NCBI GenBank assembly: GCA_943356745.1
Contig: CALRFT010000002.1
Span: 7,124 to 71,123 of the forward strand
Source of the DNA: Parcubacteria group bacterium
GTDB taxonomy: Bacteria; Patescibacteriota; Minisyncoccia; Phycocordibacterales; CSBR16-119
Direction: 5' to 3'
DNA length: 64,000 bases
Position numbers and translations under genes: made by a program. The notes beneath the pieces are model-generated. The model was not told where the DNA came from. It ran no database searches and worked only from the letters and a program-made list of their open reading frames with translations. Position 1 is the stretch's first letter. The number at the start of each line of letters is the position of its first letter. This document shows, one piece after another, positions 10,843-54,060 of the stretch.

Positions 10843-11493
10843 TTAATCTTTTTGCTTTCCGATCAGTTTTGCAAATGATCTTGCAATTGGTTCACCTAGA
10901 TGAACCACAAATAAACCGTCAATAGAAAGCTCCTCTTTTATGTCCCAAAAGAAACGCTCGATCCTTTTAGTTATTCTTCTCAGATATCTTGGGTCAAATT
11001 GTACAGGTCTATTAATCTGCATATGACCATTCTCATGGATGTTTAGTTTGGTATTAAAGTGAGCAACCTGGTTACCTCTGGCTCGAACAAGAGGATTGAT
11101 GCTGAGTTTTATGGCTTTCAATCTTTTTAGATATCTATTCTTAATCTTTACATCTTGTATATGATCTACCAGTGTAAAAAGAGAGGATGTTTGCTTATCT
11201 TCATCTAATATATTTCCCAAAATGATGATGGCATCACGAGAATAAACATCCCATAAAGAAATGACAAATGTGGTTGTAATCTTAGGATTGGAGTCTTTGA
11301 CGATAAAATCGTCCTTGTGTTTAGCTAGATACTGCAGTAACTCAGCATGATCAAGCAATCGACTTGTACTACTAAAAATATAATCTGTTATATTTCTTAG
11401 CTTTCTTTCTTCACTTATTGTTACCTTTTTCTTTTGGCTCATATTAATTAGTTGGAATAAGTTTATCAGTCCAAGACTTCTTATCTTCCTCAT
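10843..11493 (-). CDS. Uncharacterised protein co-operonic with the Gabija-like pair. Has an R-x5-H motif (possible HEPN-like RNase). The likely true start is the Met at 11442.
   Basis: The ATG at 11442 lies 1 nt after the upstream helicase stop (TAA-T-ATG). Motif VRARGNQVAHF is at 11059-11079. No recognisable family otherwise. Confidence 0.5.
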   Translation of the reverse strand: MRKIRSLGLINLFQLINMSQKKKVTISEERKLRNITDYIFSSTSRLLDHAELLQYLAKHKDDFIVKDSNPKITTTFVISLWDVYSRDAIIILGNILDEDKQTSSLFTLVDHIQDVKIKNRYLKRLKAIKLSINPLVRARGNQVAHFNTKLNIHENGHMQINRPVQFDPRYLRRITKRIERFFWDIKEELSIDGLFVVHLGEPIARSFAKLIGKQKD

Positions 11494-13168
11494 CAGGTAC
11501 TGCGATTACTAGAACTTTGCTCGGTCGAGAGATTGCTACATACACATTCCTCAACTCCTCATCCTGAGACACGCTACTAGTTTCAAGAAGAGTTTTATAG
11601 TTTTTAGAAACTTTCTTCTTCAGGAATAGTAGGACAGCTTCGAATGTTTCTCCTTTGACTTTATGAATGGTGCTTAATCTATAGTCACGCTGAATATTGT
11701 CCGTGTATTCTTGGGGAAATACACGAGAAAATTCGAGTTCTTTTGCCTCTGTGTTGTATGTGAAAGTGATAGGAATTTCAATTGATTTGAGCTGTTCACT
11801 GGCTGATTGAAGCCAAGCGCCTAGTTTAATATTTGTAAGCGGAAGAACTGCGAGTATAGCCTTGATTTCTTTTCTGAACTCAACAAAACCACGTTCATCA
11901 TGGAAATCATCCAAATCTTTTTCCGAGCAATAGTGTGCTTTCTTTAGAAATTTAAAGTAGCCCTTTTCTATATACTTTATTCCTCGATTGTAATCTTTGT
12001 TGTCTATGAGAAACTTGCCGATAGCAAAATCTCTTGCATAAGGACAACTATTTAACCAAGGCTTAATTTCTACGGTAAATGTGCCAGGAATAAAAAATCC
12101 TTTCGATCTAGCTAAGACTACAGTGGTTTTGGGTGTAATTTCTATGTCATTGGCTTTACATTTCTCTATAAAGTTCTTTACGATATCTTTTGTTTGTCCG
12201 TCAGTGTATGTGATAACCTCTGGCATACATTCAAAGTCCTTTACATCAACATTCGTTGCCAATATCTTGTTATCTCCCAATGAAGACAGGTTGTATACGG
12301 CATTACAAATTTTTTCTGAACTTCTCCAACTTTCATCAAGCACAATAGAGTTATCTTTCCAAAGTACTTGCTTCTCGATGAAAAGCTCTGGCTTTGCATT
12401 ATTCCATTCGAAGATTGCTTGATCAGGATCACCAACTAGCATTACATTTTGATCTGCATTTTCCGCTATTAATAATTCGATTATCTTCATTTGTATGTCG
12501 GTCGTATCCTGTGCCTCATCGACAATTAACCAAGGAAACTTCGAGGCAAGACTTTTTCTTACTGCGGGATATTTTTCAAGAATGACCATTGCGAAATAGT
12601 TTGCATCTGACTGAGTTGCGTAACCTTTCTTAGTAAACGCATCTTTCATCTGCTTCAATTTGAGATAGTTCTTATTTTCATCTCCGCCCTGGTTTAGTTT
12701 CGGCGGGAACGCTCCATGAAAATACTTTCTTTCTTTTCCATAAAGATCGCCATTTATTTCGTAACTTACTTTGTCAAAATAGTAAGGTGCGTCCTGGTCA
12801 TTCATACCCAGTCCCCATACACCATATGGTTCTCCAACCATAACGGGTCTTTGGTCGCAACCTAATACTAAATGCCCAAATGGAAGAAAGATGAATTTAT
12901 TTATAAAGCTATCAATTGTTCCGAGAAAGTGAGGGTAAGATACTTTTGTATTAAAATCTTCAGCACACTTCTTTTCGATTTCTTGCCAAGCAGTGTTAGT
13001 AAAAGAGATCGTGGCAATCCCTTGGTGTGGCAAAGTCCAATTTGAAATTAGCTTTGAAAGCTTTGCTGAAACACAGTATGTCTTTCCGCTCCCAGGACAG
13101 GCACGAACGACAAATTTACCCGTTCTATCGAGGACAACTTTTTGTTTGGTTGATAATTTCTCATACAT
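11444..13168 (-). CDS. gajB: UvrD/PcrA-like SF1 DNA helicase (Gabija GajB-like)
   Basis: Walker A ACPGSGKT, motif II LIVDEAQD, motif III VGDPDQAIFEW, motif V IHKVKGETFE, motif VI VYVAISRP. The start overlaps the stop of the upstream OLD-family gene. Confidence 0.8.
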   Translation of the reverse strand: MYEKLSTKQKVVLDRTGKFVVRACPGSGKTYCVSAKLSKLISNWTLPHQGIATISFTNTAWQEIEKKCAEDFNTKVSYPHFLGTIDSFINKFIFLPFGHLVLGCDQRPVMVGEPYGVWGLGMNDQDAPYYFDKVSYEINGDLYGKERKYFHGAFPPKLNQGGDENKNYLKLKQMKDAFTKKGYATQSDANYFAMVILEKYPAVRKSLASKFPWLIVDEAQDTTDIQMKIIELLIAENADQNVMLVGDPDQAIFEWNNAKPELFIEKQVLWKDNSIVLDESWRSSEKICNAVYNLSSLGDNKILATNVDVKDFECMPEVITYTDGQTKDIVKNFIEKCKANDIEITPKTTVVLARSKGFFIPGTFTVEIKPWLNSCPYARDFAIGKFLIDNKDYNRGIKYIEKGYFKFLKKAHYCSEKDLDDFHDERGFVEFRKEIKAILAVLPLTNIKLGAWLQSASEQLKSIEIPITFTYNTEAKELEFSRVFPQEYTDNIQRDYRLSTIHKVKGETFEAVLLFLKKKVSKNYKTLLETSSVSQDEELRNVYVAISRPSKVLVIAVPDEEDKKSWTDKLIPTN

Positions 13169-13171
13169 AGA

Positions 13172-14926
13172 TTATTCATTTTTTACAGCATACTTTATGG
13201 CATCCTGAATATAAGTTGGAATAACAAAATTTGTCAGAGCACCCGCATCTTCTTCAAGTCGAATTGATAACCGATGCGCCAACTCTGATTTGCCCTGCTG
13301 GTCTGCCACTTTTTTAGCAAAGTTTTTTGCATATGTCGGAATGTCAGCGTCCACAGTAATGGTAGTTTTTGGATGAAATTCTTTATATATCTCTAAAAGA
13401 ATTTGTCTGTTGAAATCACTTGCCAAGAATAGTTCGTATTCAAAAGTGACTGCACCAACGAAGACTTTCAGTAAGTTATTTTCCATTGCCTTTATCTTTG
13501 TTGCCCTTGGTGATCCATCGTCATCGTCCTTTGTTCTATCGTCATCAGTGATAATCGAACATCTATTTTTAAGACCTTTTTCTGGTTTTGCAGAATTGTA
13601 TAACTTTGCAAAATGTTCAAACGCAATTCCGTTTATATTTACAATTTCACAACCTGCTTTCTCCACATCGTAATCCGCACCCATTTTTCTACTAAAAACT
13701 GGAAGAAGTAGGGCTTCAGAAATACCCTCTACAAATATGACGCTATTTGCAAAGAATAACTGTGACTTCGTAACATCTAAGAACTTGTGCAGAAATTTTT
13801 TATTCGCTTCGTCTAGGTCTGAGTTTCTTAATGAAAGTGCAGATATTTCACCAGCTTGATGTTGCAAAACGTTGATTGAATTTAAATCTGCCTTAGCAGT
13901 AATTGTTGGAGAGTGTGAAGAAACAAAAATCTGAAAGTCCTTGTCTGTAGCAAGTTCATTTAGGTAGTTAAAAAATAGGTCTTGGAGCTGAGGATGGAGG
14001 TGAGCTTCTGGTTCTTCAATCAAGAGAGAAAAGTACGCTTCTGGTTCAATCTCTTTTTTCTGTTTTATGTCACCTAAAACTGTGGCTATATAAATCAAGT
14101 TATTATAACCAAGACCGTTTTGCCAAATGCTTAAATATTTCTGTTCATTCGATGGATCGAGTTTAAGTACTTCTTCTGAAAAGAATGGTAACTGAACATG
14201 TAAATTATTTAAGATATCACCAAATTCTAGTCCGCTAAAAGTAACCTCAATCTCTTGCTTCTTATCAAGAAAGGTTGTTCTGCCAAGATGCTCGTTTACT
14301 TTTTCCTTACCCTTAGTAATAAAATCTTTCCATTTGTCACCTTTAAGTACGGTTCTGACCTCTGTTGCTAAAGCTTGCTTCTCAGCTTCAGTATGAGATT
14401 GTGTATCACCGTACAAACGAGCCAATTTGCTATCTCTAAATGGTTTCAAAAATTGTTCTGCGTCACGTAGGGCATCGAGATGAACATAATTTATGAGCTG
14501 TAAAATTTCTGTAGAGATTTGCTGTCCCTCATTTGTTCCGCCCCAGACTTTGTATTTCAGTTTATTTTTCTCATCAAGGTAGTATTTTAAATGAAGCTGT
14601 AAATCTGCCTTATCGTTCTCATCTATAGCCAATAGCTCTCTGTATATAACAGGCTCGAGATCATCTTCTATTTCAAAATGCAGATCAAAAATCGTTTCAT
14701 TCTTTGCATCTTTAGGATCAGACTTGTTTATGTAAAAATCACATTCCTTTGAGAAGTAAATATCTCTCCTGATACTTCCGTATCCAAGGCAAAGTCGTAA
14801 GGCATCAATGATTGCAGTTTTACCTGCATTGTTTTCTCCAATAAGAATATTTAACCCCTTGTTAAAATCTAAGGAGAGTTCTTTGATTGATCTAAATCTA
14901 TTAATTTTTAGTTCTTTTATATACAT
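13172..14926 (-). CDS. gajA: OLD-family ABC ATPase plus TOPRIM nuclease (Gabija GajA-like / class 2 OLD)
   Basis: N-terminus IKELKINRFRSIKELSLDFNKGLNILIGENNAGKTAIIDAL (Walker A). LLIEEPEAHLHPQLQ (Walker B/H-loop typical of OLD/GajA). C-terminal TOPRIM motifs VIFVEGISE and IITDDD. Confidence 0.85.
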   Translation of the reverse strand: MYIKELKINRFRSIKELSLDFNKGLNILIGENNAGKTAIIDALRLCLGYGSIRRDIYFSKECDFYINKSDPKDAKNETIFDLHFEIEDDLEPVIYRELLAIDENDKADLQLHLKYYLDEKNKLKYKVWGGTNEGQQISTEILQLINYVHLDALRDAEQFLKPFRDSKLARLYGDTQSHTEAEKQALATEVRTVLKGDKWKDFITKGKEKVNEHLGRTTFLDKKQEIEVTFSGLEFGDILNNLHVQLPFFSEEVLKLDPSNEQKYLSIWQNGLGYNNLIYIATVLGDIKQKKEIEPEAYFSLLIEEPEAHLHPQLQDLFFNYLNELATDKDFQIFVSSHSPTITAKADLNSINVLQHQAGEISALSLRNSDLDEANKKFLHKFLDVTKSQLFFANSVIFVEGISEALLLPVFSRKMGADYDVEKAGCEIVNINGIAFEHFAKLYNSAKPEKGLKNRCSIITDDDRTKDDDDGSPRATKIKAMENNLLKVFVGAVTFEYELFLASDFNRQILLEIYKEFHPKTTITVDADIPTYAKNFAKKVADQQGKSELAHRLSIRLEEDAGALTNFVIPTYIQDAIKYAVKNE

Positions 14927-15010: not shown

Positions 15011-15233
15011 TGCTAGAATGAGATTACAGTTGAATACAGTCGCCTAACCCTTGGCATCGAAAACCAAGGCATGGCGCAAAACCCGCTAAAGTGTAAAAAC
15101 CTCCTCGTCAGGAGTCACTTTAGCGGTCATACCTGGAAACGGGTATGGGTTCAGCCGAAAGGTTGGATCGCAACTGGCGAGGAGATTTTTGCATCTTCTC
15201 GGATTATTAGTCTCATAAAAACCGCTAAAGTTT
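15011..15233 (+). ncRNA. GC-rich structured 5' leader (candidate cis-regulatory RNA or riboswitch-like element) upstream of the 141-aa ORF
   Basis: Extended -10-like TGCTAGAAT at 15011-15019. Nested hairpins: ccttgg...ccaagg; ccgctaaagtg...cactttagcgg enclosing ctcct-cgtc-aggag; cagcc-gaaa-ggttg. A third copy of ccgctaaagt at 15222-15231 abuts the start codon and gives mutually exclusive pairing. Confidence 0.4.
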
Positions 15234-15659
15234 ATGAATACAAATATCTCTTCCTGGAGTACGGGAAGAAAGTTAGTCGTTTTTTTATTAGTTCCCATCT
15301 TCATCATCGTTGTCATAGGAATGGCAAACAGTCCAACTCCTGCTTCTGTTCCCAAGACGGCAGAAGAGATCGCATACCAGAAGAAACATGACTTTGCTTC
15401 ACTGGCGAAGATGAATGTCGAGATGACGCTCAAAGCTCCCTCTACAGCGAAGTTCAACACTTCACCAGTAGTGAAAGAAGAGAATGGTATCTACTCGATC
15501 AGCTCTTGGGTTGATAGTGAAAATAGCTACGGTGCAATGATCCGAAGTCAGTGGTCAGTAAAGGCTCATTACATCGGAGGGGACACTGAAGATGAGATCG
15601 GGACAGGTGCAAACTGGATCATCGATGAGTTCATTTTTGATGGGAAAAAGGTGAAATAA
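15234..15659 (+). CDS. Hypothetical small exported or membrane-anchored protein (island cargo)
   Basis: 141 aa with an N-terminal hydrophobic helix (LVVFLLVPIFIIVVIGMA). No recognisable domain. Confidence 0.5.
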   Translation: MNTNISSWSTGRKLVVFLLVPIFIIVVIGMANSPTPASVPKTAEEIAYQKKHDFASLAKMNVEMTLKAPSTAKFNTSPVVKEENGIYSISSWVDSENSYGAMIRSQWSVKAHYIGGDTEDEIGTGANWIIDEFIFDGKKVK

Positions 15660-15660
15660 G

Positions 15661-15900
15661 TGCAAGTACATTAACAGTGCTGAAAACAGTGCTAGAGGGT
15701 GAAAAACAGGCGAAAAAACACGCAAAACGGTAAGTAATGGATTTGGACAAAAACAGTGGAAAAAACAGTGAAAACGGCATCAAAAACACAGTCTCGAAAT
15801 GTGCATTAACAGCGACAAAAACAGCGACAGACTCTCTAGATTGATTTGACCAAAAACAGCGTGGAAACAGTGTGAGAAGCATCAATTTAGGGGTCTAAAA
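15661..15900. repeat. Iteron-like array: at least 10 copies of AAAACAG(T/C)G and close variants in ~240 bp
   Basis: aaaacagtgcta, aaaacaggcg, aaaacagtgg, aaaacagtgaaaacgg, aaaacacagtc, taacagcgac, aaaacagcgac, aaaacagcgtgg, aaacagtgtgag. Located directly upstream of the 232-aa ORF. Confidence 0.55.
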
Positions 15901-16730: not shown

Positions 16731-16916
16731 ATGGAAGTCGAGCAACTATTCTCAAAAGAAGAAATACAGAACATTTCCGATCTTGGGAATGTGCTACGGG
16801 AGATACGCTCCAGGCTTAAACGTGAGGGTGTCTCAATAGATGAAGCTCGCAAAAAGTTACGAGCCACACGAAAAAGAACTTATGCCTCAAAACAAAGACA
16901 AAAACAATCCGCATAA
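16731..16916 (+). CDS. Small basic protein upstream of and overlapping the recombinase gene. Possible DNA-binding protein or recombination directionality factor.
   Basis: 61 aa, K/R-rich C-terminus. Its position relative to the serine recombinase gene. Confidence 0.25.
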   Translation: MEVEQLFSKEEIQNISDLGNVLREIRSRLKREGVSIDEARKKLRATRKRTYASKQRQKQSA

Positions 16917-18552
16917 AAATGAGTATCTGATCTACTCACGTAAGAGTACGGACGATGCTATTAATCAAAAGAACTCCATTTCCTATCAAGTAGTGGAGGC
17001 ACTTAAATATGCAAAGCATGAGAGACTGCCGATTGCGAAAGTTGATATTGAGGGATTTTGTACAGAGGGCATTATCCGTGAAAGACATACGGCATTTAAA
17101 GAAGACGATAATCTTAATTTTAGTGATGATGGATATATAAAATATCGTATACAAAGACCCAAGTTTAAACGCCTAGTCGATGCTCTGGTTAAAGGAGAAT
17201 ACAAAGGCGTAATTTTTTTATGTTGGGATCGTGCCAGTCGCAACAAGAGTGATAACAGTGTTATTTCAAAGATGATAAATCTTGGAGTTGATGTACTATT
17301 TGTTCAGGCGACATACGAAAAAACTAGCTCTGGTGGTCTTCATATGAATATCGATGGTGTCTTCTCTGAGCATTACTCACTGGTGATTAGAGAGAAAGTA
17401 ACGAACACGAGAAAGAAAATGAGAGACGAGGGTATCTGCACTTACAAAGCCCCGATAGGATATTTAAATAATGGCGATCCTCGCCACAAGCCTTTTGACC
17501 CAGATCGTTCACCACTCGTAAAACAACTTTTTGAAAAATACGCTGAGGGAAATTGGACACTTGCTGATCTTGCACGTTGGGCTAATGAGAACGGTTTGAT
17601 CACTGTACCTGCTCGTCGAAAGAGAACGGAGCAGGAAATGTTGATGGACGATGAGGTTACAATAGATGCGGTCTCTCGTCCTATGACGTTTAATCATATC
17701 CATAAGATATTAACTAACCAGTTCTATATAGGTAAAGTATTAGGAAACGAAAACCAATGGGTGAAAAGTGTTAGTCATGCCCCGCTTGTTGATGAAGATT
17801 TATTTTATAGAGTTCAGGGATTGCTCCGTTCAAAGAAAGTTAGTGTCCACTACAAAACCAAGCCTTATTTCGCCTACAGAGGGCTTGTACGGTGTGGAGA
17901 GTGCCACAGAGTGTATTCGCCTTACATGCAGAAAGGTATAGCGTATTATGGCGCACGATGCATTCTTGGCTGTAAGAATAAGAACCGTAATATAAACGCT
18001 AATTTCATTGAGGAGAAAGTGGGATCAAAGCTATTTAACCTCAATTTCACTAAAGAAGAATTGGCTGATATCGATCGTCAGACCAGAGGTGAAGTTGCTA
18101 CTCTCGATGATAAGCGCAGGGGGCGTTTAAATGTTATTGATCAAGAGAAACGAAAGCTTCGAGATGATCTATCGTACTTACGCAACAATAAATTGTCTCT
18201 GCTTAAAAATCAGGTCTATAGCCATGAAGAATATCTTGAACAAGAGAGTGACATTGCTTCTAAACTTCAAAAGCTGAGGAATGAAGAAGAAGCATCGGAT
18301 GTTTCGATGCAAGAAGTCATTAGAGATGTGGTTCTACTTTCCGAACTCCTAGAAGACGCTTATTTGTATTACTCTTTGGCAAATCCAACAGAAAAGCAAC
18401 AAATAATAACGAAAGTCTTTTCCGAACTTACATTATTTGGTAAAACCCTTGATTACCAATGTAAAAACGGTTTTAAAGTCTTCGAGAAGAAGAAAAATAT
18501 CTTGTGTGACCCTACGGAGAATCGAACTCCGATTTCCAGGATGAAAACCTGA
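16840..18552 (+). CDS. Large serine recombinase (integrase)
   Basis: Catalytic motif LIYSRKSTDDAINQKNSISYQ (YxRxST...SxxxQ). RPKFKRLVDALVKGEYKGVIFLCWDRASRN (DRLSR-like). Recombinase domain, zinc ribbon CGECHRV...CILGC and a C-terminal coiled coil. The last ~15 codons are encoded by the tRNA-Glu 3' half. Confidence 0.85.
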   Translation: MKLAKSYEPHEKELMPQNKDKNNPHKNEYLIYSRKSTDDAINQKNSISYQVVEALKYAKHERLPIAKVDIEGFCTEGIIRERHTAFKEDDNLNFSDDGYIKYRIQRPKFKRLVDALVKGEYKGVIFLCWDRASRNKSDNSVISKMINLGVDVLFVQATYEKTSSGGLHMNIDGVFSEHYSLVIREKVTNTRKKMRDEGICTYKAPIGYLNNGDPRHKPFDPDRSPLVKQLFEKYAEGNWTLADLARWANENGLITVPARRKRTEQEMLMDDEVTIDAVSRPMTFNHIHKILTNQFYIGKVLGNENQWVKSVSHAPLVDEDLFYRVQGLLRSKKVSVHYKTKPYFAYRGLVRCGECHRVYSPYMQKGIAYYGARCILGCKNKNRNINANFIEEKVGSKLFNLNFTKEELADIDRQTRGEVATLDDKRRGRLNVIDQEKRKLRDDLSYLRNNKLSLLKNQVYSHEEYLEQESDIASKLQKLRNEEEASDVSMQEVIRDVVLLSELLEDAYLYYSLANPTEKQQIITKVFSELTLFGKTLDYQCKNGFKVFEKKKNILCDPTENRTPISRMKT

Positions 18553-18578
18553 TGTCCTAACCGTTAGACGATAGGGCC
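18507..18578 (-). tRNA. tRNA-Glu (anticodon TTC)
   Basis: Cloverleaf GGCCCTA-TC-GTCT-AACGGTT-AGGAC-A-TCAGG-TTTTCAT-CCTGG-AAAT-CGGAG-TTCGATT-CTCCG-TAGGGTC-A. Anticodon loop TTTTCAT. T-loop GTTCGATTC. Confidence 0.8.
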
Positions 18579-39966: not shown

Positions 39967-40015
39967 ATTTTTTTACCAAGAACAAAATTTGTTTATTTTA
40001 ATTACTAATACGTGT

Positions 40016-40972
40016 TTAAATTTTATTCAAAATTATTTTCTGTTGTTCAATTTTCCAGTTAATATCTTGCAACTTTAATTCTAAATCTTTAAATTCTGAT
40101 GAAAATTTTTTATATGTATTTTGATAATCTAAACCAGCTTGTTGAGCTTCAATTTCTAATAAAGAAATATCATATTCATATTTACGATTAATTTCTGCCT
40201 TCATTGCATTTGCCTGAACTATAGACATTCCGGGCGCATTATTAACTTTTTGTAAGTCTTCAAGATATTTTTTTTGTCTATCTATTATCTTCTGGTCTAT
40301 ATCAGATTTATATAAATTATAATCTTTATTTAAATCTTCAATTTCATCATTAATATCATTCATTTGATATTGAATTTTACCGTAATACTCTGTTAGTCCT
40401 GCGATTTTATCTTGAGCTTCTTTTTGTTCACGTGTAAGATTTTTTACTGAAGACTTCACATTTTCGATAGCTAGAGTTTTACTTTCGAGAGAATCTTGCT
40501 CAATTTTAACTATACTAGAGTTTATCTTCTTTTCACTTTTTAAAGAGATATCTTGATTAGTATCTAAAATATCTTCCGTTGGTTTAATTTCTTGTGGAGA
40601 ATTTTCTTTTGATTTAGATAAACTTTCTTTTATTACAGAAACTCTATCATTAACTAATGTATTAAATTCGACATCTAAATTATTAGTATATTTATCAAGC
40701 TTAGTCATTCTTTCCTCTACCTTTCTTTTAATAGAGAGCTTTTTAAAATCATCAACTTCAGACTCATAGGTAAGTAAATCATCCTCTGAAAATTCAAGTA
40801 TTTTTTGTACTTTTTTTTCGGGAGAGAAAGTAAAAAATAATGATATTTTTTGTATAAAAAGATTGGGATTTTTATCTTTCGCAGCAAAAACCAGTCCTGG
40901 GGTTATCAAAAATGTAAAAATAAAGCTTAATATAATTATTTTCTTCATATTACATATTGTATATATAAACAA
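40016..40972 (-). CDS. Secreted coiled-coil protein (K/E/Q-rich)
   Basis: N-terminal signal/TM (IIILSFIFTFLITPGLVFA), then a long heptad-like K/E/D/Q-rich sequence. Confidence 0.4.
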   Translation of the reverse strand: MFIYTICNMKKIIILSFIFTFLITPGLVFAAKDKNPNLFIQKISLFFTFSPEKKVQKILEFSEDDLLTYESEVDDFKKLSIKRKVEERMTKLDKYTNNLDVEFNTLVNDRVSVIKESLSKSKENSPQEIKPTEDILDTNQDISLKSEKKINSSIVKIEQDSLESKTLAIENVKSSVKNLTREQKEAQDKIAGLTEYYGKIQYQMNDINDEIEDLNKDYNLYKSDIDQKIIDRQKKYLEDLQKVNNAPGMSIVQANAMKAEINRKYEYDISLLEIEAQQAGLDYQNTYKKFSSEFKDLELKLQDINWKIEQQKIILNKI

Positions 40973-40997
40973 AAGATAATCAAATGTTTTTTATTTT

Positions 40998-41477
40998 GTG
41001 AATACAAAGAAAAAAGATAGTGGTAGAATGAATTATATGACAATACAATCTTTTGATTCAAAGCTTATTAGATTTTTTAGAAAAATAAGTATACCTTCTG
41101 CACGTTTTGGTTTATTTGTAGTTTTCTTTTGGTTTGGAGCCCTCAAGGTGCTTGGTCTCAGCCCCGCGAGTGGACTCGTTCAGAGTTTGTTCGAACAAAC
41201 AATTCCATTCATTTCTTTTTCAACTTTCTTAGTTCTCTTTGGTTTATTTGAATGTCTCATTGGTATTCTTTTCCTCATTAAAGGAATGGAACGAATCGTA
41301 ATCCCCCTTCTTCTCATTCACATGATCACAACTTTTGGACCACTTGTATATCTTCCACAAGACAGCTGGCAAAGCTTCATGGTTCCAACACTTGCAGGAC
41401 AATATATTATCAAAAATCTTGTCATTGTCGCAGCGGGAATTGGAATTGCAGCACATCTCCACCCACTGAAAAAATAA
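40998..41477 (+). CDS. Hypothetical 4-TM membrane protein
   Basis: Hydrophobic helices GLFVVFFWFGALKVLGL, FLVLFGLFECLIGILFLI and NLVIVAAGIGIAA. Confidence 0.35.
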   Translation: MNTKKKDSGRMNYMTIQSFDSKLIRFFRKISIPSARFGLFVVFFWFGALKVLGLSPASGLVQSLFEQTIPFISFSTFLVLFGLFECLIGILFLIKGMERIVIPLLLIHMITTFGPLVYLPQDSWQSFMVPTLAGQYIIKNLVIVAAGIGIAAHLHPLKK

Positions 41478-51785: not shown

Positions 51786-53021
51786 TTATACCGACTTCCC
51801 CACAACAAAACCTGTTGTCCAACAAAGCTGGAGAGAATATCCTCCGCTCGGACGAGTAATGTGAAGCATATCCCCTGTAAAAAATAGGTTTGAAAATATC
51901 TTTGACCGAAAATCCTGAGCATCCACTTCTCGAAGTGGTATTCCCCCATCGGACACAACAGCCTTGTCGTAGCCAAGAGAACCTGAGATTGTCAGTGGTG
52001 ATTGCTTTAAAAATCGCACAATACTTTTTCTTTGTTCTTTTGTAACACTGTGAACTTTCAAATCATCGCTTAAAGAAAGCTCCTCACACAAAACCGGAGC
52101 AAGTGCCGCTGGTATTATTTCTTTCAAAATATTTTTAAGATTTTTGTTTTTGTTTTTTTCAAACAATTCCACAACTTTTTTCTCAAGACTTCCAATATCA
52201 AGTGCTGGAAACATATCAATAAGACAAGTTACTTTTCCTTTTTCGAGTAATTGCAAAACTTCATACGCGGAGTTTAAAACAAGTGGACCCGACATTCCAA
52301 AATGCGTACAGAGAATATTTCCGCGTCTATCAAAAATTCGTTTTTCATCGAGATAAAAATAAAGCTTCACATCAACGAGTGTGGCTCCCGAGAGTTTTTT
52401 GATCCACTTCTCTTTGACCTTGAGTGGAACAATATTTGGATTTGGAGCAACCACAGTGTGTCCGATTTCTTTCATCCAAGAGAATCCATCTCCTGTTGAT
52501 CCCGTTTCTGGATGAGAAAGTCCTCCAGTTGCAATCACATATGACTTTGCAGTATATTTCTTTCCTTTTGTAATCACACCTGAAATGACATTGTTTGTGT
52601 ATTCGATTTTTTCCACCGGAGTACTTGTTTGGATTGAAACCTTATTCGCACGAAGCCAATCTTCCAAAACCCGCACAACATCAAGAGCATTTTCTGTTTT
52701 TGGAAAACATCTATTCCTCTCCTGCACAACCACAGGAAGACCAAGCTTTTTAAAAAAAGCTTTTGTTGTTTCTTTGTTAAATTTTGAAAAAGAAGAATAA
52801 AGGAATTTTTGAGAATCTTTGTATTGGGATAAGAAAGTATGAATATTATCTTCATTGTTTGTAATATTACATCTTCCACCACCAGAAATAGCAAGCTTTG
52901 CTCCAAGCTTTTTGTTTTTCTCAAGCACAAGTACGCGAAGCCCTCGCTCCGCAGCGGTTCCAGCTGTCATCATTCCTGATGCTCCGCCACCTATAACAAT
53001 GAGATCATACATGTAGTTCAC
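51786..53021 (-). CDS. HI0933/YhiN-family FAD-dependent flavoprotein
   Basis: YDLIVIGGGASGMMTAGTAAERGLRVLVLEKNKKLGAKLAISGGGRCNITN is the characteristic N-terminus of the HI0933 family. Confidence 0.7.
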   Translation of the reverse strand: MNYMYDLIVIGGGASGMMTAGTAAERGLRVLVLEKNKKLGAKLAISGGGRCNITNNEDNIHTFLSQYKDSQKFLYSSFSKFNKETTKAFFKKLGLPVVVQERNRCFPKTENALDVVRVLEDWLRANKVSIQTSTPVEKIEYTNNVISGVITKGKKYTAKSYVIATGGLSHPETGSTGDGFSWMKEIGHTVVAPNPNIVPLKVKEKWIKKLSGATLVDVKLYFYLDEKRIFDRRGNILCTHFGMSGPLVLNSAYEVLQLLEKGKVTCLIDMFPALDIGSLEKKVVELFEKNKNKNLKNILKEIIPAALAPVLCEELSLSDDLKVHSVTKEQRKSIVRFLKQSPLTISGSLGYDKAVVSDGGIPLREVDAQDFRSKIFSNLFFTGDMLHITRPSGGYSLQLCWTTGFVVGKSV

Positions 53022-53078
53022 AATACCTATAGCTTACTCTAGTTTGAAATCAAAATCTACATGCGTATCTAACTATAT

Positions 53079-53107
53079 TTGACATACATTCACTAAAAAT
53101 GCATAAT
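53079..53107 (+). promoter_or_regulatory. Near-consensus sigma70 promoter: TTGACA, 17 bp spacer, TG-CATAAT
   Basis: ttgaca at 53079-53084 and tgcataat at 53100-53107. Precedes a 46-codon ORF. Confidence 0.5.
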
Positions 53108-53127
53108 ATGGACAAATTCTTTACACT

Positions 53128-53268
53128 ATGAAAAAAACACAAGTACCTACAAAAAAACCTCTCTCTCTTCATGTGATGGTTTTACAATTTGGCGATGAGA
53201 AAAAAGTGCCTGAAGAAATCGTGACACAGGAAGTACTTCGCAGAACTGAAGCTGAAATAACTTCCTAA
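53128..53268 (+). CDS. Small ORF of 46 aa (MKKTQVPTKKPLSLHVMVLQFGDEKKVPEEIVTQEVLRRTEAEITS). Not in the six-frame track because it is under 60 aa.
   Basis: Near-consensus promoter upstream. Terminator at 53289-53322 downstream. Confidence 0.3.
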   Translation: MKKTQVPTKKPLSLHVMVLQFGDEKKVPEEIVTQEVLRRTEAEITS

Positions 53269-53288
53269 CATGAAAAAAGGTAAATTCA

Positions 53289-53322
53289 AATCCCCCGCGA
53301 ACTGCGGGGGATTTTAAATAAA
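53289..53322. terminator. Terminator hairpin
   Basis: aaatcccccgcgaactgcgggggatttt. Confidence 0.55.
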
Positions 53323-53325
53323 TAT

Positions 53326-53829
53326 TTAAGGAATTATAGGATTCCAAGAATCCCAACCAATCCCTCTCTTCTTACTATCTGTACCAAAATGATTAACTTC
53401 TTTTAACAATGCCTCTGTTTTAATTAAACGACCAAAAATATCTCTATACTCAATAGTTATTTTTCCATTATGTTCTTCATTTTTTTGTAAAATGAAATCA
53501 ATATTATATCTGATAATTACATTATCCGATGTACCAACATCTAAAGAATTTATAGTAACATCTGGTTGTCCAGGAAAAATAATTTTTGGCTTTATTGCAA
53601 TTCCTTTACCACAATTAGTCAATGAGATATTTAAAATATTATCAGTAGAGCTATACGCACGTAAACCAAGTATTAAAACAGGTAAAAAATCTGCTTTTAT
53701 ACTATTCTCCATTTCTTTAACAGACATTTTTGCCCATTTCATCTGCTTATATGTAATACAAAGAAGAACTGCAGTTGATACCACTGAAGCAGTGGATGTA
53801 ATTATTTGAATGTTTTCTGAAGTGATCAT
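53326..53829 (-). CDS. Hypothetical protein with an N-terminal TM helix (AT-rich islet)
   Basis: 167 aa. ITSTASVVSTAVLLCITY helix. Lies 6 nt downstream of the 74-aa ORF. Confidence 0.3.
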   Translation of the reverse strand: MITSENIQIITSTASVVSTAVLLCITYKQMKWAKMSVKEMENSIKADFLPVLILGLRAYSSTDNILNISLTNCGKGIAIKPKIIFPGQPDVTINSLDVGTSDNVIIRYNIDFILQKNEEHNGKITIEYRDIFGRLIKTEALLKEVNHFGTDSKKRGIGWDSWNPIIP

Positions 53830-53835
53830 GGCAAA

Positions 53836-54060
53836 TTACTTATCAATAGTAGAAACATAATCTTTGGCTTCTTTTAATGTTTTAAAAGATTTGTACGCTG
53901 AAAAAATAATCTCTTTTTGATTATTTTCTGAATAAGATTGTTGTTCATCAGTTTTAATATAAATTGTATAAATATTATCTATATTAAATATACGATATTC
54001 TACACCTTTTTCATTTATTCCTTTAAATACGACTTTTGGTCCCATACAAATATAATACAT
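53836..54060 (-). CDS. Hypothetical small protein (AT-rich islet)
   Basis: 74 aa ORF. The first gene of a two-gene unit. Confidence 0.3.
   Translation of the reverse strand: MYYICMGPKVVFKGINEKGVEYRIFNIDNIYTIYIKTDEQQSYSENNQKEIIFSAYKSFKTLKEAKDYVSTIDK

Follow-up and report, generated by a model that had tools for sequence, protein, structure and literature searches.

The LOOT RNA core

The window analysed here is a 64,000-nucleotide (nt) stretch of contig CALRFT010000002.1 from a Parcubacteria group bacterium (GenBank assembly GCA_943356745.1, positions 7,124 to 71,123), and its subject is the structured leader found on the forward strand immediately upstream of a gene coding for a protein of 141 amino acids (aa). 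The core of this leader matches the Rfam family RF03000, the LOOT RNA, with 84.1 bits, well above the gathering threshold of 46.4. The match spans model positions 1–121 of 121 (E = 2e-14 for a search of the whole window) and is the only one in the window, tRNAs excepted. When the segment 14900–15300 was compared to Rfam with permissive filters and E ≤ 1, LOOT alone was reported and the C4 covariance model gave no match. The model alignment displays the same six helices, the same junction nucleotides (CCUAA, GCAUGG, AAAA and GU) and the same GAAA-capped P4 as in the rest of the family; the columns invariant in an alignment of 60 loci include C4-A8, G30-G35 and A39-A42. The leader is a genuine, well-supported structured RNA and another instance of the LOOT family (Table 1).

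An initial annotation of this stretch had described a GC-rich leader folding into nested helices. The GC content is 52% in 15041–15169 and 46% in 15011–15233, compared to 36.5% in the whole window. All the helices listed are present on the forward strand, and the minimum free energy (MFE) of 15011–15260 is −89.3 kcal/mol versus −60.7 ± 4.4 kcal/mol for dinucleotide shuffles (z = −6.6; none of 200 as good). The list had overlooked the GAAA-capped hairpin P4, and the strand cactttagcgg, correctly recognized as a segment with alternative partners, had been placed 4 nt too far upstream, at 15112–15122 instead of 15116–15126. The family identity had escaped notice until the Rfam scan proposed at that stage was carried out and returned the full-length LOOT match. 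No riboswitch class had been found for the leader because LOOT, although a genuine family with covariation, is not one of the known riboswitch classes. An outer helix “P0” (CAGUUG 15027–15032 / CAACUG 15171–15176), present in the MFE structure of the window, was dropped since relatives were seen by inspection to lack it.

LOOT is one of the 224 motifs reported by Weinberg et al. in 2017 (PMC5737381). It is a metagenome-based family typed in Rfam as “Gene; sRNA” (small RNA) with function unknown (PMC7779021). The literature searched otherwise mentions it for covariation statistics alone (PMC7657543; PMC11701678) and contains no functional study of LOOT. Relatives were collected with a pattern built on the invariant junction nucleotides, which gave at least 120 matches each in genome and metagenome collections; a looser initial pattern had given nine matches in IMG/VR, of which only L001 is a LOOT RNA, and was then tightened. 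Among sampled matches 17 of 18 score above the LOOT threshold (the false one, L054, was excluded), and 237 loci were analysed after removal of duplicates. Helix P3a covaries in these loci: its two arms pair with −5.2 kcal/mol when taken from the same locus and −2.5 kcal/mol in chimeras (p = 1e-40).

Table 1. Features of the LOOT leader and of its surroundings, in window coordinates.
Feature	Position	Strand	Description or basis
TG-extended −10-like box	15011–15019	+	TGCTAGAAT; seen in the sequence
Recurrent motif ACARYTKAW	15026–15036	+	ACAGTTGAATA; at the inferred transcription start, enriched upstream of LOOT
LOOT RNA core (RF03000)	15041–15169	+	covariance-model match
P1	15041–15044 / 15073–15076	+	LOOT core
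P2	15049–15054 / 15064–15069	+	ccttgg/ccaagg; LOOT core
AAAA junction	15078–15081	+	LOOT core
P3	15083–15093 / 15116–15126	+	ccgctaaagtg/cactttagcgg; LOOT core
a1 (P3 5′ arm)	15083–15093	+	CCGCTAAAGTG; paired with 15116–15126 in the Rfam alignment and in the MFE structure
b1 (A-run, P3a 5′ arm and loop)	15094–15111	+	TAAAAACCTCCTCGTCAG; 5′ strand of helix B (RNAduplex, covariation)
P3a	15101–15105 / 15110–15114	+	ctcct/aggag, loop cgtc; LOOT core
a′ (P3 3′ arm)	15116–15126	+	CACTTTAGCGG; alternative partners a1 or a2
P4	15128–15135 / 15140–15147	+	GAAA loop; LOOT core
P5	15148–15156 / 15161–15169	+	GAAA loop; includes cagcc 15152–15156 / ggttg 15161–15165; LOOT core
b′ (3′ tail)	15174–15191	+	CTGGCGAGGAG followed by ATTTTTG, contains the U-run; complementary to b1, outside the Rfam model
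b2	15193–15200	+	ATCTTCTC, pairing with GAGGAGAT (15179–15186); U-run in the hairpin loop (MFE structure)
a2 (third copy of the P3 5′ arm)	15222–15231	+	CCGCTAAAGT (ccgctaaagt); ribosome-binding position, 2 nt before the ATG at 15234
Putative regulated gene	15234–15659	+	141-aa protein with a predicted N-terminal transmembrane (TM) helix and extracytoplasmic alpha+beta (NTF2/cystatin-like) domain
AACAG[TC]G repeats	15660–15890		about ten iteron-like repeats, five of them exact AAAACAGYG
Recombinase/tRNA-Glu region	16840–18578		tRNA-Glu at 18506–18578, on the strand opposite to the recombinase
Gabija GajA	13172–14926	−	PADLOC, E = 4e-157
Gabija GajB	11444–13168	−	PADLOC, E = 6e-179
HEPN/AbiU2-like gene	10843–11493	−	weak match

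A conserved tail helix outside the family model

The Rfam model ends at P5. In nearly all loci a G-rich tail and then a U-rich run follow directly, and in the window and its relatives this 3′ tail (b′) is complementary to the segment b1 of the core, with which it can form an additional conserved helix, designated here helix B. In the window the duplex of b1 with the tail is worth −24.8 kcal/mol (RNAduplex). Helix B comprises 11 GC-rich base pairs (bp) followed by AUUUUUG; P4, P5 and part of P3, about 60 nt in all, lie within it. Covariation in helix B was counted after alignment of 60 diverse loci with MAFFT, without fitting to any structure. In the 16 aligned pairs 89.8% of the cells are paired, and 15 of the 16 show changes on both sides, which is comparable to the P4 control; displacing one strand by 1–3 columns reduces pairing to 43–50%. 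The column pair 75/173, for example, is GC in 22 sequences, CG in 18, AU in 11 and UG in 6. Duplexes between strands of the same locus have a mean energy of −25.9 kcal/mol versus −15.7 kcal/mol for strands of different loci (p = 2.6e-88). UG pairs occupy two helix B positions in 46 and 54 of the 60 sequences, and the signal therefore belongs to the RNA of the forward strand.

The tail has a further partner downstream, b2, with which own-locus pairing is also stronger than cross-locus pairing (−10.7 versus −8.8 kcal/mol, p = 8e-8). A scan for terminator-like structures reported only this local hairpin (15178–15201), which has a poor tail. In 69% of the loci the tail is followed by a run of four or more T. 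Since only 4 nt (15112–15115) separate b1 from a′, the 3′ arm of P3, a helix B of 17 bp and an intact P3 should exclude each other in one chain. The initial annotation had seen an alternative pairing in this leader, between a′ and the downstream copy a2 described below, and had missed this more widespread competing helix.

Recurrence of the P3 arm at the start codon

The sequence of the P3 5′ arm recurs in the window directly before the start codon of the 141-aa gene (a2), as noted in the initial annotation, and the recurrence is not due to chance. In 26 of the 237 loci, 9 nt or more of the locus's own P3 5′ arm recur without mismatch 30–260 nt downstream, as they do in 5 of 1179 arm-swapped controls; a sense copy of the P3 3′ arm never reaches 9 nt in the same loci. 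Copies of 8 nt or more occur in 33 loci and comprise 29 distinct sequences. In 23 of these loci the copy ends within −3 to +12 nt of the called ATG, and in several of the others another ATG directly follows it. Pairing of a′ with the region from −28 to +6 of the start codon reaches −12 kcal/mol or better in 12.4% of the loci versus 0.7% of the controls. The arrangement recurs before unrelated genes in about 30 loci besides those orthologous for the 141-aa gene. That the copy is placed precisely at the start codon suggests control of translation, as judged from sequence comparison.

The nine orthologous loci, which carry homologues of the 141-aa gene, are particularly informative, as arm and copy change together and make up five different pairs: CCGCTAAAGT in the window and in L256, CCGTCCAAAGT in L254 and L255, CGCAAGCAACG in L251 (whose protein is 92% identical to the 141-aa protein), TCCTACGCAAA in L252, the P3 arm of which is shared by L257, and TCGCGACAAACG in L253, L258 and L259. 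The copy ends 2–5 nt before the ATG in these orthologous loci, the start region having been viewed in all but L257. The alternative pairing of cactttagcgg put forward in the initial annotation thus appears compensated in orthologous loci, in the way expected from the comparison of homologous leaders suggested there, and holds for a minority of LOOT loci. Lack of conservation of the helices had been named as the outcome that would overturn the proposal; this is not what was found, because part of the family conserves the pairing, with compensating changes.

The idea that some segment of LOOT generally sequesters the start region was considered and rejected, the signal being weak outside the third-copy subset. 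An ATTATTA-like motif before the third copy is modestly enriched (32 of 218 loci, about 13 being expected).

Transcription signals and position of the leader

The TG-extended −10-like box that had been remarked before the leader proved to be a recurrent element: TGnTAnnAT is found within the 68 nt that precede LOOT in 63 of 229 loci and in 4 and 7 of 229 in two controls (2–3%), its median distance to CCUAA being 21 nt. Of the 229 loci, 87 have the motif ACARYTKAW before LOOT, versus 2–3 of 229 in controls. This motif starts 6–8 nt after the −10 box and 9–20 nt before P1, and could be an operator, a signal in the initial transcript or a part of the RNA. A simple scan of the window found no full sigma-70 pair of −35 and −10 sequences. 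A promoter at a fixed position upstream of LOOT was also considered; no sharp position-specific signal appeared, the extended −10 and the start-site motif being the only enriched elements.

The longest downstream open reading frame (ORF) has the orientation of LOOT in 194 of 210 loci (92%) and begins about 70 nt downstream; the median distance from P4 to the called start codon is 74 nt. In 118 of 208 loci the neighbouring gene upstream is divergently oriented. The co-oriented gene, the extended −10 box and the start-site motif together place LOOT at the extreme 5′ end of a transcription unit. Occurrence in potential 5′ untranslated regions (UTRs) is the criterion by which the discoverers of the motif recognized cis-regulatory RNAs (PMC5737381).

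Hosts, genetic context and cargo genes

LOOT, typed in Rfam as a free sRNA, is found here as a 5′ leader in prophage-like elements, mostly of genomes labelled as Patescibacteria: 60 of the 80 genome matches listed are in metagenome-assembled genomes (MAGs) with a Patescibacteria/CPR (candidate phyla radiation) label. A large serine recombinase is encoded in the available flank (a few kb) of 98 of the 237 loci, a phage-type N6/N4 methylase in that of 31, and the small and large terminase subunits in that of 27 and 20, respectively. LOOT therefore belongs to temperate phages and to phage-derived integrative islands. Among the loci with homologues of the 141-aa gene, L254 and L257 have an integrase on the reverse strand, followed by LOOT and its gene on the forward strand and by a small ORF and a methylase on the reverse strand. 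L256 has the same right-hand flank on a contig that ends before any integrase, and in L251 to L253 the recombinase is found elsewhere in the flanks. The cargo of L252 and L253 includes a type I restriction-modification (R-M) system, and that of L251 an OLD-family ATPase and an HpaII R-M system.

Some genomes have two LOOT loci at separate places (L037 and L089 on the 876-kb chromosome OY969557.1; L017 and L027 in one MAG), and the module is therefore multi-copy within a host. Twelve LOOT contigs (L014, L031, L047, L048, L049, L051, L053, L061, L063, L068, L079 and L088) come from MAGs labelled Gammaproteobacteria, Flavobacteriaceae or Sediminibacterium. Either phage or CPR contigs were mis-binned, or the MAGs carry wrong labels, or the host range may be wider.

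The genes that follow LOOT are very diverse. The 223 downstream proteins fall into 156 clusters, and 139 of them have an N-terminal hydrophobic segment. A scan of 150 of these proteins revealed no Pfam family common to all downstream genes; the matches are scattered (Ltp-type lipoprotein, Imm_superinfect, DUF4352, SHOCT, zinc ribbons, SNase, Mrr, RadC, DUF6804 and others) and the commonest families have at most four members each. This is typical prophage accessory (“moron”) cargo, mostly membrane or secreted proteins. The 141-aa protein, for which an exact look-up gave no record, has no match in Pfam and matches phrog_13160 (E = 6e-14). Its AlphaFold2 (AF2) model has a pLDDT of 83 and resembles most closely phage lipoproteins or membrane proteins that are themselves uncharacterised. 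It is a phage-type membrane protein of unassigned function.

A search for homologues of the 141-aa protein found 121. Many carry an additional N-terminal CxxC...CxxC zinc ribbon before the TM helix that the window protein and its closest relatives lack. The homologues share the core motif LKAPSTAKF...VDSxNxxGA, followed in most of them by MIRS. Note that several database gene calls for these homologues (L251 6001–6519; P0001, P0016, P0018) begin inside LOOT. Their additional N-termini (e.g., MRRFALERERDNSERSCRRSCVAICV) are translated RNA structure, the real start being the ATG just after the third copy, and the present analysis corrects such calls.

The integrated island in the window

The window belongs to a metagenomic contig of 518,649 bp and is part of a bacterial chromosome that encodes ValRS, LeuRS, UvrA, LepA, PriA and TsaD, and LOOT sits there in a small integrated island. 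Upstream of it a complete Gabija system is divergently transcribed. Downstream, on the strand of LOOT, the order is the 141-aa gene, the AACAG[TC]G array, a gene for a 232-aa protein with a weak winged-helix (Trans_reg_C) match, and a large serine recombinase (phrog_95 integrase) whose 3′ end overlaps a tRNA-Glu gene. The array occupies the 260-nt spacer between the 141-aa and the 232-aa genes; its repeats may be binding sites for the winged-helix protein or the origin of the element. The same overlap of integrase and tRNA is present in the homologous island of L251 (8179–9810), which suggests tRNA-targeted integration. No similarity to isolated phages was found. Local dips in GC content occur at 40001–41000 (0.25) and 53001–54000 (0.29), the background being 0.36.

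A candidate bistable leader and its alternatives

Sequence comparison favours, with a probability that we place slightly above even, a reading of the LOOT leader as a cis-acting, riboswitch-like bistable switch; it is most likely an on/off switch and not a free-standing small RNA. The leader would be transcribed from its own extended −10 promoter, LOOT RNA first, at the 5′ end of a gene carried by the integrated phage-derived element. LOOT is a five-way fold with GNRA caps and invariant junction nucleotides, in which three segments have conserved second partners that would allow two global states. In state I, the fold described in Rfam, P3 (a1:a′) and P3a would be formed and the tail folded onto b2; a2 and the start codon would then be single-stranded and translation would proceed. 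In state II the tail b′ would invade P3a to form the long helix B with b1. As this helix would cross P3 and be sterically incompatible with it, a′ would be released and captured by a2, which ends 2 nt before the AUG, and the ribosome-binding region would be covered. Formation of helix B while the RNA polymerase is on the U-run (15186–15190) could cause intrinsic termination as well. Both outputs would be off in state II, with a′:a2 blocking initiation on read-through transcripts. A stabiliser of the junction, be it a small molecule, a protein or the RNA polymerase itself, would turn the downstream gene on. The comparison shows the identity of the family, the three pairings with their covariation, the placement before co-oriented genes and the prophage setting; the direction of switching, its action through termination and translation, and a trigger for it are what we infer.

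Several points weigh against such a switch. Nearest-neighbour energies in the window favour the LOOT fold by 6.6–9.4 kcal/mol: the nested energies are −82.0 kcal/mol for state I (the MFE structure), −75.4 kcal/mol with helix B enforced and −72.6 kcal/mol with a′:a2 enforced. This gap is small, so that a factor binding the invariant junction could decide the outcome. Neither a ligand nor any other trigger is known for LOOT, which the Rfam curators class as sRNA, and the genes that it would regulate form no coherent set or pathway, unlike classical riboswitch regulons. The third copy, with its end 0–12 nt before an ATG, is limited to about 12–15% of the LOOT loci, and in the remaining ones LOOT has weak general complementarity to the start region (own −12.9 versus cross −11.7 kcal/mol, p = 0.0075). 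About 31% of the loci have no T-run of at least four, and because some of them (e.g., L160 and L098) keep helix B without any U-run, this helix is not simply a terminator. The mutual exclusion of P3 and helix B is a steric inference from loop lengths, not a computation.

The alternative that deserves most attention would make LOOT a trans-acting sRNA with its own promoter, ended at the tail and U-run, whose a and b repeats are antisense targets of an immunity of the c4/CI type. In phages P1 and P7 (c4 RNA) and P4 (CI RNA) a processed RNA, co-transcribed with its targets, carries segments a′ and b′ that pair with upstream a1 and b1 and with downstream a2 and b2. The downstream copies cover the ribosome-binding site (RBS) of the next gene, and the immunity that results is element-specific. 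LOOT resembles these RNAs in several respects: it is borne by temperate phages or integrative elements, complementary copies lie on both sides with the downstream one at the next start, and its elements follow one another (a1 b1 ... a′ ... b′ b2 a2) much as those of c4 do in the P1 immI region. The trio a1 (15083–15093), a′ (15116–15126) and a2 (15222–15231) recurs in relatives; the a and b sequences are hypervariable between elements around a constant core, as specificity determinants should be, and the U-run follows the tail in most loci. We nevertheless regard this alternative as unlikely. LOOT is larger than c4 or CI RNA and has no sequence or structure match to them, the C4 model of Rfam included. 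Its large invariant multi-helix junction has no counterpart there, a′ and b′ are base-paired within its own most stable fold, and a2 is absent from most loci. The genes that it precedes code for diverse membrane or secreted proteins and not for antirepressors or replication functions, and both the strict co-orientation of these genes and the copy of the P3 arm at the start codon favour a 5′ leader. The U-run behind the tail in 69% of the loci would nonetheless be compatible with a short, terminated RNA.

A static element, such as a stabiliser of the mRNA 5′ end, an RNase III site or an RNA polymerase-binding RNA similar to the put RNAs of phage HK022, which bind RNA polymerase and render it resistant to terminators, would be useful to any cargo gene and hence fits their diversity. 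It also agrees with the location of LOOT directly between a promoter and a terminator-like feature and with the length and near perfection of helix B (17–20 bp of double-stranded RNA). Covariation, however, maintains two crossing sets of pairings (P3/P3a versus helix B, and a1:a′ versus a′:a2), which a single fold has no reason to preserve, and the copy placed exactly at the start codon again argues for control of translation; a static role is accordingly rated as rather improbable. Were helix B formed between molecules, the tail of one LOOT RNA pairing with the P3 apex of another to give dimers or higher assemblies, exchange between molecules would remove the conflict between P3 and a full helix B, both conserved and yet hard to accommodate in one chain according to loop lengths. 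Such assemblies have recently been described for further ornate RNAs of bacteria (ROOL, GOLLD and OLE), and homo-oligomers made of RNA alone are on record for phage-associated RNAs (PMC12286853). This arrangement leaves the start-codon copy and the strict position before genes unexplained, and we give it very little weight. A leader-peptide attenuator is suggested by the AUG within the invariant GCAUGG, from which an ORF runs in the window (15071), and a DNA-level site (recombination site or origin) by the mobile element with its adjoining integrase and iteron-like repeats. The ORFs starting at the conserved AUG have no conserved length (median 13 codons, 10th percentile 2), and 62% of them end within LOOT. 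In DNA or in RNA of the opposite strand, the many G-U pairs would become C-A mismatches, and the covariation is of the RNA type throughout. Both possibilities are essentially refuted by the ORF lengths and the G-U pattern.

Relation to other regulatory RNAs and significance

The bistable-leader model brings LOOT close to riboswitches and other cis-acting leaders. By comparative evidence, LOOT would be a conserved structured domain in the 5′ UTR of a putatively controlled gene that displays mutually exclusive pairings (a1:a′ versus a′:a2; P3/P3a versus helix B with its U-run). As in those leaders, the complex fold lies at the mRNA 5′ end, the core is constant and the expression platforms vary between members, one strand having its alternative partner at the ribosome-binding site and another a partner followed by a U-run. 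LOOT differs from them, beyond the heterogeneity of its genes, in that its terminator-like helix encloses about 60 nt and not a small loop, and in having three interlocked alternative pairings instead of one. Whether LOOT is the sensor of a new riboswitch class, or of another signal-responsive switch, in temperate phages and integrative defence islands of Patescibacteria is a speculative proposal that we find possible without calling it probable. A cellular or infection-related signal would then turn on whatever cargo is plugged in (superinfection-exclusion lipoproteins, membrane proteins, nucleases), an extension that we advance just as tentatively. A true small-molecule riboswitch would be a subset of the bistable-leader model and has a similarly modest chance.

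The unit formed by promoter, leader and gene is self-contained and located between the integrase and the rest of the element, as in moron or lysogenic-conversion cassettes. Its cargo is of the same kind (Ltp-type lipoproteins, Imm_superinfect, nucleases and small membrane proteins), and defence systems are encoded alongside, namely Gabija in the window and OLD/HpaII or type I R-M in relatives. Morons are normally described with a promoter and a terminator only; to our knowledge, an ornate leader shared by interchangeable cargo genes has not been described. Relative to the literature searched, four points appear to be new: that LOOT is placed as a leader, that its tail forms a helix, that an arm copy lies at the start codon, and that it occurs in prophages and defence islands of Patescibacteria.

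LOOT has been an orphan since 2017, derived from metagenomes, typed as sRNA and lacking host, context and mechanism. If the present reading is correct, it gains hosts, mostly Patescibacteria, in which almost no gene regulation has been characterised, a genomic niche, the site next to the serine integrase where prophages and defence islands carry their cargo, and a concrete switching model with named nucleotides. Should LOOT prove to be a sensor, it would in effect act as a portable inducible promoter made of RNA, serving the protection of the host by prophage genes. Unlike metabolite riboswitches, one ornate RNA leader would be reused before hundreds of unrelated accessory genes, and it could serve as a portable regulatory part.

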